Below are positions 59,813 to 62,452 of a stretch of DNA of 64,000 nt, in pieces (positions within the stretch are counted from its first letter, which is position 1; the number at the start of each line of letters is the position of its first letter). The position numbers and the translations under genes were made by a program. The DNA is from Escherichia coli (lineage in GTDB: Bacteria; Pseudomonadota; Gammaproteobacteria; Enterobacterales; Enterobacteriaceae), in the NCBI RefSeq assembly GCF_050920415.1, contig NZ_CP169309.1; one strand, written 5' to 3'. The notes below the pieces were generated by a model. The model was not told the DNA's origin. It saw nothing but the letters and a program-made list of their open reading frames with translations, and made no database searches.

Positions 59813-60823
59813 ATGAAGGCTGCAGTTGTTACGAAGGATCATCATGTTGACGTTACGGATAAAACACTGCGCTCACTGAAACATGGCGAAGCCCTGCTGA
59901 AAATGGAGTGTTGTGGCGTATGTCATACCGATCTTCATGTTAAGAATGGCGATTTTGGTGATAAAACCGGCGTGATTCTGGGCCATGAAGGCATCGGTGT
60001 GGTGGCAGAAGTTGGCCCCGGCGTTACCTCATTAAAACCAGGCGATCGCGCCAGCGTGGCGTGGTTTTACGAAGGATGCGGTCATTGCGAATACTGTAAC
60101 AGCGGTAACGAAACGCTCTGCCGTTCAGTAAAAAATGCCGGATACAGCGTTGATGGCGGCATGGCGGAAGAGTGCATCGTGGTCGCCGATTACGCGGTTA
60201 AAGTGCCGGATGGCCTGGACTCGGCGGCGGCCAGCAGCATCACCTGTGCGGGCGTCACCACCTACAAAGCAGTAAAACTATCAAAAATTCGTCCAGGACA
60301 GTGGATTGCTATCTACGGTCTTGGCGGTCTGGGCAACCTCGCCCTGCAATACGCGAAAAATGTCTTTAATGCAAAAGTGATCGCCATTGATGTCAATGAT
60401 GAGCAGTTGAAACTGGCAACCGAAATGGGTGCAGATTTAGCGATTAACTCACGCACCGAAGACGCCGCCAAAATTGTGCAGGAAAAAACCGGTGGCGCTC
60501 ACGCTGCGGTGGTGACAGCGGTAGCTAAAGCTGCGTTTAACTCAGCGGTCGATGCCGTTCGTGCAGGCGGGCGTGTTGTAGCAGTCGGTCTGCCGCCGGA
60601 GTCTATGAGCCTGGATATCCCACGCCTTGTGCTGGATGGCATTGAAGTGGTCGGTTCGCTGGTCGGCACGCGCCAGGATCTAACCGAAGCCTTCCAGTTT
60701 GCCGCCGAAGGCAAAGTGGTGCCGAAAGTCGCCCTGCGTCCGTTAGCGGACATCAACACCATCTTTACTGAGATGGAAGAAGGCAAAATCCGTGGCCGTA
60801 TGGTGATTGATTTCCGTCGCTAA
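59813..60823 (+). CDS. adhP: Zinc-dependent alcohol dehydrogenase AdhP
   Basis: 336 aa from the internal ATG with AAGGAGGA Shine-Dalgarno; zinc-ligand motif GHEGIG and Rossmann GLGGLG. Confidence 0.95.
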
Positions 60824-60832
60824 GAGGCCCTT

Positions 60833-60867
60833 GCTGCGACTGCCATGTTTGAGTCGCAGCCTGTTTT
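60833..60867 (+). terminator. Intrinsic terminator after adhP
   Basis: Hairpin gctgcgact...agtcgcagc followed by a T-tract. Confidence 0.6.
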
Positions 60868-61008
60868 GCGAGACGCTTTCCGCAATTTCACTCTTCTTCT
60901 TTTCCTCCCCCATCTTTCCCCTCACAATTCGCGAAAACGTAGCGAAATTTGTTGCGCTGCACGGAACAATAGTGATAGTGTTCCTTTCGAGGGAACAAGG
61001 ATGAAGAG

Positions 61009-61287
61009 ATGATAATGAATTTCAGACACAAGGGATTGCGTGACTTGTTTCTTCTCGGCAAAACCTCCGGCGTTATACCGACGCAAATCAAACGATTACG
61101 CCACCGACTCGCTGTGATTGATGCAGCAAGCTGTCTTGCTGATATCGATATGCCCGGTTACCGACTACACCCGTTAAGCGGCGATCGTGATGGAATTTGG
61201 GCGATATCTGTCTCGGGCAACTGGCGAATCACATTTGAATTCGTCAATGGCGATGCATACATACTGGATTACGAGGACTATCACTGA
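61009..61287 (+). CDS. HigB-like (RelE/ParE superfamily) toxin, intact
   Basis: 92 aa with the family hallmark ([10 protein letters not shown]..., [29 protein letters not shown]..., DYEDYH); stop overlaps the yddM start in ATGA. Confidence 0.7.
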
Positions 61288-61571
61288 TGAAAATGGCCAA
61301 TCATCCCCGCCCGGGGGACATTATTCAGGAATCACTGGACGAGCTGAACGTCAGCCTGCGCGAGTTTGCCAGAGCAATGGAAATTGCGCCCTCAACGGCA
61401 AGCCGATTGCTGACCGGAAAAGCCGCGTTGACGCCAGAAATGGCGATTAAACTTTCCGTGGTGATCGGCAGTTCGCCGCAAATGTGGCTGAATCTACAAA
61501 ACGCCTGGAGTCTGGCAGAGGCAGAAAAAACGGTAGATGTGTCGCGATTACGCCGTCTGGTTACGCAATAA
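61287..61571 (+). CDS. yddM: HigA-like HTH antitoxin YddM
   Basis: 94 aa; Xre-type HTH ([33 protein letters not shown]); translationally coupled to the toxin gene. Confidence 0.8.
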
Positions 61572-61622
61572 AAAAATGGCACCTTATAAAGCGCCATTTG
61601 AAACTGATGGCAAACGCAAAAT

Positions 61623-61720
61623 TGCCTGATGCGCTACGCTTATCTGACCTACACGTTCACTGCAATCTATTGGATTTGAACGGTTTGTAGGCCGGATAAG
61701 GCGTTCACGCCGCATCCGGC
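61623..61720. repeat. REP (repetitive extragenic palindromic) elements between yddM and fdnI
   Basis: REP-type imperfect palindromes: tgcctgatgcgctacgcttatctgacctaca and gtaggccggataaggcgttcacgccgcatccggc. Confidence 0.6.
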
Positions 61721-61745
61721 ATGAACAAAGTGTACGTTGTCTACA

Positions 61746-61779
61746 ATAAAAAATGGCGCTTTTTACAGCGCCATTTTCA
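61746..61779 (-). terminator. Intrinsic terminator of the fdnGHI operon (bidirectional-looking)
   Basis: Perfect 9-bp stem (aatggcgct / agcgccatt) flanked by an A-tract and a T-tract, immediately 3' of fdnI. Confidence 0.55.
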
Positions 61780-61798
61780 GCTTAAAGTTCAAAAGAGA

Positions 61799-62452
61799 TT
61801 ATATCCCTTCTTCACTCTCTTTTTTCGCTTCTGCCTTTTCGATTTCACGATACCAGCGTGGATGGTGTTTCTTCGCCCAACGACGGCTCACCTTCCCTTC
61901 GATCATCCCTTTAATCGACCCTTTCACCCAGAATGCCATATACATATGAATCAGGATGGCGTGGATCAGGATGATACCCGCAGCCGCGTGAATCAACAGG
62001 CTATAACGGACAACCTGCATCGGGAAGTACTGCGCAAAGTACGGACGCCAGATAATCACCCCGGTTACCAGCAGCACGAAAATCATGCTCATGATCGACC
62101 AGAACATCATCTTTTGCCCGGCGTTGTACTTACCAACATCCGCCACTTTGTGTTCATTGCCTTTTAATACTTCGACAATGTTCAACAGCCACGGAATATC
62201 TTTCTTATCCGGGATGTTGTGATGCACAAAACGCACAAACATAAACATCAGCGCGACGAAAATCGCAATGCCGAAGAACGGGTGCAAAATGCGTCCCATC
62301 TGCGGCGTACCGAAGGTTTGTGTCAGCCATTGCAGCGTCGGGAAGAAGAACGAAATCCCGGACAGCGCTACCAGGAAGAAGCAAATCACCACGGTCCAGT
62401 GACAGGCGCGATCAATAAACTTGGTGCGCACAATCATTTTCGACTTACTCAT
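61799..62452 (-). CDS. fdnI: Formate dehydrogenase-N gamma subunit (cytochrome b556)
   Basis: 217 aa from the internal ATG ([19 protein letters not shown]...); four transmembrane helices with haem-ligand histidines. Confidence 0.9.

Follow-up and report, generated by a model that had tools for sequence, protein, structure and literature searches.

The window, i.e. the whole 64000-nucleotide stretch of Escherichia coli DNA that was analysed, carries a 92-codon ORF, referred to here as higB, directly upstream of yddM. The order on the E. coli chromosome is maeA, adhP, higB and yddM, with fdnI-fdnH-fdnG on the opposite strand. This maeA-adhP-[toxin]-yddM-fdnI-fdnH-fdnG context, and with it the predicted position of the pair between adhP and the fdn genes, was confirmed by an annotated record that is 100% identical with window positions 60830-61620 (791 bp compared). 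The features of the locus are collected in Table 1.

Table 1. Genes and sequence elements of the higB-yddM locus, in window coordinates
Feature	Position	Strand	Basis
Conserved block, probable higBA promoter/operator	60951-60997	+	Motif conservation; YddM binding predicted
GTTGCG	60951-60956	+	
GGAACA	60963-60968	+	
TGTTCC	60979-60984	+	
GGAACA	60992-60997	+	
AAGGA, Shine-Dalgarno-like motif, 7 nt 5' of the higB ATG	60997-61001	+	Read from sequence
higB, Rts1-type HigB toxin, 92 amino acids, intact, ATG start	61009-61287	+	ORF list, PF05015, alignment with P. vulgaris HigB
Second in-frame ATG of higB	61015	+	
GAGGA, Shine-Dalgarno motif for yddM, within the 3' end of higB, 9 nt 5' of the yddM ATG	61273-61277	+	Read from sequence
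yddM, HigA antitoxin/HTH repressor, 94 amino acids, ATG start	61287-61571	+	TIGR02607, HTH_3, identity with PDB 2ICP/2ICT
Hairpin directly 3' of the yddM stop codon	61574-61599		T-run on the - strand only; no canonical + strand terminator

The ORF list gave a 92-residue ORF before yddM with coordinates identical to those of the original prediction. This ORF ends in TAT CAC TGA (61279-61287) and the ATG of yddM occupies 61287-61289, base 61287 (A) being common to the stop and start codons. An overlap with the yddM start had been predicted in the form of ATGA; the overlap itself stands, but it amounts to one base (TGATG) and not to a four-base ATGA. The abutting genes and the GAGGA motif before yddM give a layout that is compatible with translational coupling. 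The toxin-first order given in the original prediction was confirmed. A gene for a HigA-type HTH (helix-turn-helix) antitoxin lies directly downstream of the toxin gene and in the same orientation, with the one-base overlap, which is the arrangement of higBA-type operons, and the same arrangement was found in 20 or more orthologous loci.

The half-sites upstream of higB form inverted repeats, GGAACA-N10-TGTTCC-N7-GGAACA, with spacings of 10 and 7 nt, and lie within a longer footprint in the 50 bp 5' of higB, GTTGCG-N6-G[G/C]AACA-N10-GTTCC-N7-GGAAC. This footprint is invariant in Escherichia, Citrobacter, Pluralibacter, Enterobacter sp. and the toxin-less K-12 allele, whereas the flanking sequence varies. 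The GGAACA/TGTTCC repeats probably represent a YddM operator through which the operon might be autoregulated. A scan for sigma-70 consensus promoters across 60780-61820 returned no site, and a scan of the whole window against Rfam at the gathering threshold returned no match. In E. coli O139:H1 P15-25 (L051, 381-519), a K-12-type allele carries a further 29-bp deletion which removes the GGAACA...TGTTCC operator before yddM, and this allele offers a possible naturally occurring operator mutant in which autoregulation could be studied.

The hairpin that follows yddM may mark the end of the operon, its role being uncertain. The yddM-fdnI spacer contains two copies of a 29-nt hairpin (AAAAAATGGC...GCGCCATTT), at 61571-61599 and 61748-61776, with a REP-like segment between them. 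In K-12 (L002, 3285-3675) a 178-bp tandem duplication of the hairpin unit yields three hairpins, and this duplication accounts for the difference in length of the yddM-fdnI spacer between strains.

Family assignment of HigB and YddM

The original prediction described the upstream ORF as a HigB-like member of the RelE/ParE superfamily and proposed a Pfam search, which we carried out. The protein matched PF05015 (HigB-like_toxin) over its full length (E=1.5e-17, with residues 4-92 aligned to positions 2-91 of the 91-position model), and at E up to 10 no other Pfam family, ParE_toxin included, was matched. Among solved structures, HigB encoded by the Proteus vulgaris plasmid Rts1 gave the best matches (4MCT_B, E=1.2e-31, residues 1-92), and in a pairwise alignment 51 of the 92 residues (55%) were identical with P. 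vulgaris HigB (structures 4MCT/4PX8) with 0 gaps, so that residue numbers can be transferred directly. With full-length matches to both PF05015 and P. vulgaris HigB, the ORF is far beyond what chance would produce. Its score against the NCBIfam model TIGR02385 (RelE/StbE) was 17.8 bits, below the cut-off of 27.9, and the protein is therefore a HigB of the RelE/ParE superfamily and not a RelE in the narrow sense. The PGAP product name is the broader 'type II toxin-antitoxin system RelE/ParE family toxin' (WP_000605673.1).

The residues on which P. vulgaris HigB depends were examined individually. Mutagenesis and kinetics have demonstrated that His54, Asp90, Tyr91 and His92 of that protein are critical in vivo and in vitro; Arg73 contacts the scissile phosphate and Asn71 lies in a selective pocket (PMC5027501). 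The original prediction had been made conditional on the presence of conserved residues, and all six of these (His54, Asn71, Arg73, Asp90, Tyr91 and His92) are kept at identical positions in the E. coli protein, as they also are in the Escherichia and Citrobacter orthologues. Three basic residues of P. vulgaris HigB are changed, Arg48 to Met, Lys57 to Ser and Arg69 to Ser; single alanine changes at Arg48 and Lys57 do not abolish the toxicity of the P. vulgaris protein (PMC5027501).

YddM exceeds the cut-off of the NCBIfam HigA equivalog TIGR02607 (93.7 bits against 47.7, model positions 1-80 of 81), contains an N-terminal HTH_3 domain (E=5e-9, residues 14-65) and is 100% identical with the protein of PDB 2ICP/2ICT, which was deposited as 'antitoxin HigA' and which published work assigns to E. 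coli CFT073 under the name HigA. It also matches P. vulgaris HigA (E=1e-18). The structure of CFT073 HigA is reportedly the subject of a paper by Arbing et al. from 2010. The same protein, WP_000781370.1, is encoded in toxin-less K-12, where YddM has been counted among candidate factors with ChIP-exo peaks and a motif, a result which is compatible with YddM binding DNA without any need for the toxin.

Distribution, loss and age of the toxin gene

To determine how widely the pair occurs, the 791-bp locus was used as a query against 5426 complete E. coli genomes. Matches were obtained in 5412 of these, of which only 1328 extended over most of the query length; the remaining matches start at window position 61282, i.e. 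they comprise yddM only. Thus yddM is present in 99.7% of the E. coli genomes, whereas the toxin gene alone, used as a query, was found in 1330. Many of these toxin-gene matches were 278 and not 279 bases long. In strain Ecol_AZ159, in which the toxin gene is annotated as frameshifted, a G is absent from CCACCGACT, and the translation ends after 35 residues, ahead of every catalytic residue. A 71-nt probe containing this lesion matched exactly in 545 genomes and, as the sequence context of the lesion contains no homopolymer run, the frameshift is a real, lineage-wide mutation, the lineage being perhaps ST131. A full-length toxin gene is kept in roughly 780 genomes (about 14%), and among the strains sampled it was intact in CFT073, BEC1-S17-ESBL-09, GIMC1405 and 746. 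One bat isolate carries a toxin gene with an in-frame 9-bp deletion.

Only four of the 5413 records matching the 791-bp locus are at least 99% identical with it, one of them exactly (MFDS1022581). In a comparison of window positions 59813-62452 with K-12, dS was 0.22 for adhP, 0.18 for fdnI and 0.16 for yddM. We considered whether synonymous divergence in yddM might be unusually high, as would be expected of a balanced polymorphism, and dropped this explanation as the flanking adhP and fdnI genes differ from K-12 to a similar degree; the E. coli lineage to which the window belongs is simply a divergent one, well separated from K-12.

The original prediction had asked whether the K-12 counterpart of the toxin gene is intact. 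It is absent, and yddM stands alone there. When the adhP-yddM spacer was aligned between strains, K-12, a typical O157:H7 strain (L048), ampC_0069 and O139:H1 were found to have one allele in common, from which about 265 bp, essentially all of higB, is missing. This K-12-type allele keeps the upstream block TTGTTGCG...GGAACAATAATGATAGTGTTCC...GGAAC, and it also keeps the bases just before yddM (CACTAATG or CACTGATG; CACTGA/CACTAA), which match the last His codon and the stop codon of higB. The exact deletion junction in K-12 is ambiguous, with similar short strings (GAG and TAATGAA/TGATGAA) at both ends. Of five toxin-less alleles that we examined, four still have the operator. These relics of higB and of the operator indicate that absence of the toxin is a secondary loss, which leaves an orphan yddM still behind the old regulatory region.

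Two further toxin-less E. coli alleles were noted. O157:H7 TR01 (L005, 693-860, aligned to window 60815-61300) has a rare mosaic allele different from the K-12 type, in which the last 51 bp of higB are fused directly before yddM, the upstream spacer resembles that of toxin-bearing strains and the operator half-site resembles that of K-12; partial toxin matches of this kind accounted for only two of the 1330. In E. coli E6474 (L050, 1-983), which likewise lacks the toxin, a transposon has inserted into the antitoxin gene: the gene for a Tn3-like TnAs1 transposase lies directly against a yddM without its N-terminus.

To place the pair in a wider context, YddM was searched against one genome per species, which gave 41 loci. 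Abutting higB-yddM genes beside fdnI were found in E. albertii and other Escherichia, in 13 intact Citrobacter loci, and in Pluralibacter, Enterobacter sp. and another enterobacterium, and related pairs without the fdnI context were found in Cedecea, Buttiauxella, Chimaeribacter and Erwinia. Judged from this synteny, the higBA pair is an old resident beside fdnI in the Escherichia-Citrobacter group and not a recent insertion. In comparisons with six Citrobacter orthologues, at dS values close to 1 or higher, the toxin gave a dN/dS of 0.04-0.11 and the antitoxin one of 0.03-0.08. Within Escherichia, the YddM protein is identical in 10 of the 13 alleles compared, although these differ from the window by 9-17 synonymous changes, and seven such alleles, when tested against the window, gave dN=0 at dS values of 0.14-0.30.

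The search also returned damaged loci. Citrobacter sp. FP75 and C. portucalensis A60 (L010 and L016; 2723-3001) have independent toxin lesions before an intact yddM orthologue, one an internal deletion that spares nothing of higB but its ends, the other a disruption of the N-terminal third. A 214-bp contig (L037) filed under Clostridium sp. CMCC3677 is 100% identical with yddM codons 1-36, and is almost certainly E. coli contamination. The repeated loss or breakage of the toxin gene in both E. coli and Citrobacter indicates that higB is dispensable.

Relationship to known higBA systems

The pair is already annotated and published, and is not a discovery of the present study. RefSeq names the genes, in the identical record and in every toxin-bearing genome listed, as a RelE/ParE family toxin and 'yddM: HigA family addiction module antitoxin', in agreement with the HigA-like identity that the original prediction had given to yddM. 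Bustamante and Vidal (2020) described the system TA20 ('ParE-2/HigA-2') of the adherent-invasive E. coli (AIEC) strain NRG857c, with genes of 279 and 285 bp, as common to CFT073 and as represented by the antitoxin only in K-12 and HS; TADB-derived tables list the pair as higBA (LF82 and NRG857c entries), and it is included in toxin-antitoxin surveys of AIEC/UPEC. TA20 has the same gene sizes and overlap as the pair in the window, to which it was matched by sizes, arrangement and published description. In CFT073 the locus shows the same order, adhP-higB-yddM-fdnI, and its toxin is intact and 98% identical in protein with that of the window; the two higB genes differ at 5 of 279 nt, the window having Ile27 for Val and Ser41 for Cys. 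What the present analysis adds is the three-state polymorphism with its counts, K-12 yddM as an operator-keeping remnant, the deep synteny beside fdnI and a correction of the 'ParE-2' label.

Our literature search found no published experiment on the toxin of this locus. Norton and Mulvey deleted a higBA locus of CFT073 and found no defect in mouse urinary tract infection; this deletion was considered as a candidate and rejected, as neither of the 25-nt primer arms has a match in the window with up to three mismatches. Another higBA locus was therefore targeted, and the knockout result does not apply to the one described here.

Among the closest known systems is the founding higBA, HigB-HigA of P. 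vulgaris plasmid Rts1 (PDB 4MCT, 4MCX, 4PX8 and 4YPB), which like the window pair is toxin-first with a 92-residue toxin. Rts1 HigA and YddM both have an N-terminal HTH, with lengths of 104 and 94 residues respectively. The Rts1 pair is plasmid-borne, whereas the pair in the window is chromosomal and syntenic across genera, and several non-essential basic residues of the toxin differ. The HigB-HigA pair of K-12 (YgjN-YgjM) is also a toxin-first higBA, but it lies at another locus and falls in another subfamily. K-12 HigB and Rts1-type HigB are both ribosome-dependent RNases of the RelE superfamily. The HTH of K-12 HigA is C-terminal, in contrast with the N-terminal HTH of YddM/CFT073 HigA and P. 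vulgaris HigA, and the PDB matches of the toxin at E up to 1 included no K-12 HigB chain. GraT-GraA of Pseudomonas putida (PDB 6F8S/6F8H) is much more distant, with a HigB-like toxin (E=3e-7) and a HigA-like HTH antitoxin (E=2e-11). In GraT a disordered N-terminal extension is reported to have a regulatory role (PMC6393540), and this extension is absent from the toxin in the window.

Proposed mechanism and alternative explanations

The analysis established the structure of the two genes, the families to which they belong and the conservation of key residues, as well as the synteny, the selection and the deletion alleles of the locus. On this basis we consider it very probable that the pair forms a type II toxin-antitoxin operon, chromosomal in location and related in kind to Rts1 higBA. 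The original prediction had gone on to propose a functional module, which is a strong inference, as the critical residues of P. vulgaris HigB are kept and the toxin has evolved at a dN/dS of 0.04-0.11. Toxicity, neutralization, cleavage specificity or codon preference and operator binding are predicted. In the mechanism that we propose, a single promoter 5' of higB would drive both higB and yddM. HigB would be a RelE-fold endonuclease that enters the ribosomal A site and cuts mRNA, with His54 as the predicted general base, Arg73 as the stabilizer of the transition state and Tyr91, Asp90 and His92 acting on the side of the leaving group. YddM, whose translation would begin at the abutting ATG, would be a folded HTH antitoxin, HigA, which binds and neutralizes HigB, as suggested by homology with the complex 4MCX, and which would repress the operon via the GGAACA/TGTTCC inverted repeats. 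The yddM that stands alone in K-12 and in most E. coli is the remnant left by the deletion of about 265 bp of higB with the promoter/operator kept.

One alternative carries some weight. The locus might be mainly that of a transcription factor, YddM, with HigB intact but minor as a toxin and at most a co-regulator heading for loss. The distribution is in line with this, as yddM is found in 5412 of the 5426 genomes and the toxin gene in about 1330, 545 of which have it frameshifted; so are the constancy of YddM (identical in 10 of 13 Escherichia alleles, and dN 0 at dS 0.14-0.30 in the seven tested), its ChIP-exo peaks and motif in toxin-less K-12 and the toxin lesions that arose independently in E. 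coli and in Citrobacter. However, the intact higB genes have been under purifying selection across genera (dN/dS 0.04-0.11) with their catalytic residues kept, which is unexpected for a gene drifting to loss, and we judge this explanation to be improbable on the whole. A further and more novel reading, which we hold to be less likely than not, starts from the separate losses of higB (the K-12-type deletion, the frameshift in 545 genomes, TR01 and two in Citrobacter), together with the retention of yddM and its operator and the constancy of the YddM protein. In this reading YddM would have a role independent of the toxin, possibly as chromosomal anti-addiction immunity against Rts1-type HigB from enterobacterial plasmids or as a regulator of other genes.

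It is very hard to reconcile the data with a pair recently acquired between adhP and fdnI as the addiction module of a mobile element. HigB homologues are indeed common on enterobacterial plasmids (540 plasmid records, mostly of less than 60% identity) and the toxin is patchy within E. coli, but no mobile-element genes flank the pair, the same pair occupies the same site beside fdnI in several genera, and the higB and operator relics of the toxin-less alleles point to secondary loss. The only near-identical 'plasmid' copies are NZ_CP141089.1 (4.9 Mb), NZ_CP141085.1 (386 kb) and CP054253.1 (253 kb), which look chromosomal, all other plasmid homologues of the toxin being below 60% identity. We attach just as little credence to a ParE-type DNA gyrase poison, a reading which draws on the CDD 'ParE_toxin superfamily' label behind the name ParE-2 of Bustamante and Vidal and on a 2024 AIEC review that treats the genes under ParE gyrase inhibition, but which is opposed by PF05015 as the sole Pfam match, by the 55% ungapped identity with a ribosome-dependent RNase that includes the C-terminal Asp-Tyr-His catalytic end, and by the fact that a CDD label of this type is the name of a superfamily and not a function.

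Having returned to a higBA operon of the Rts1 kind as the preferred reading, we note what follows for the annotation and biology of E. coli. The 'ParE-2' label and the gyrase reading derive from a CDD superfamily label and, judged against the Rts1-type HigB features of the protein, are misleading; the AIEC literature would be corrected by describing the predicted product as an Rts1-type HigB RNase. What K-12 carries as yddM is one half of an ancestral higBA operon, surviving downstream of the old operator region, and this is worth stating in the K-12 annotation. Finally, the intact, frameshifted and deleted states of higB provide a natural series in which the role of an orphan antitoxin can be examined and, if YddM does act as a regulator of other genes, it would be that role by which the polymorphism is maintained.
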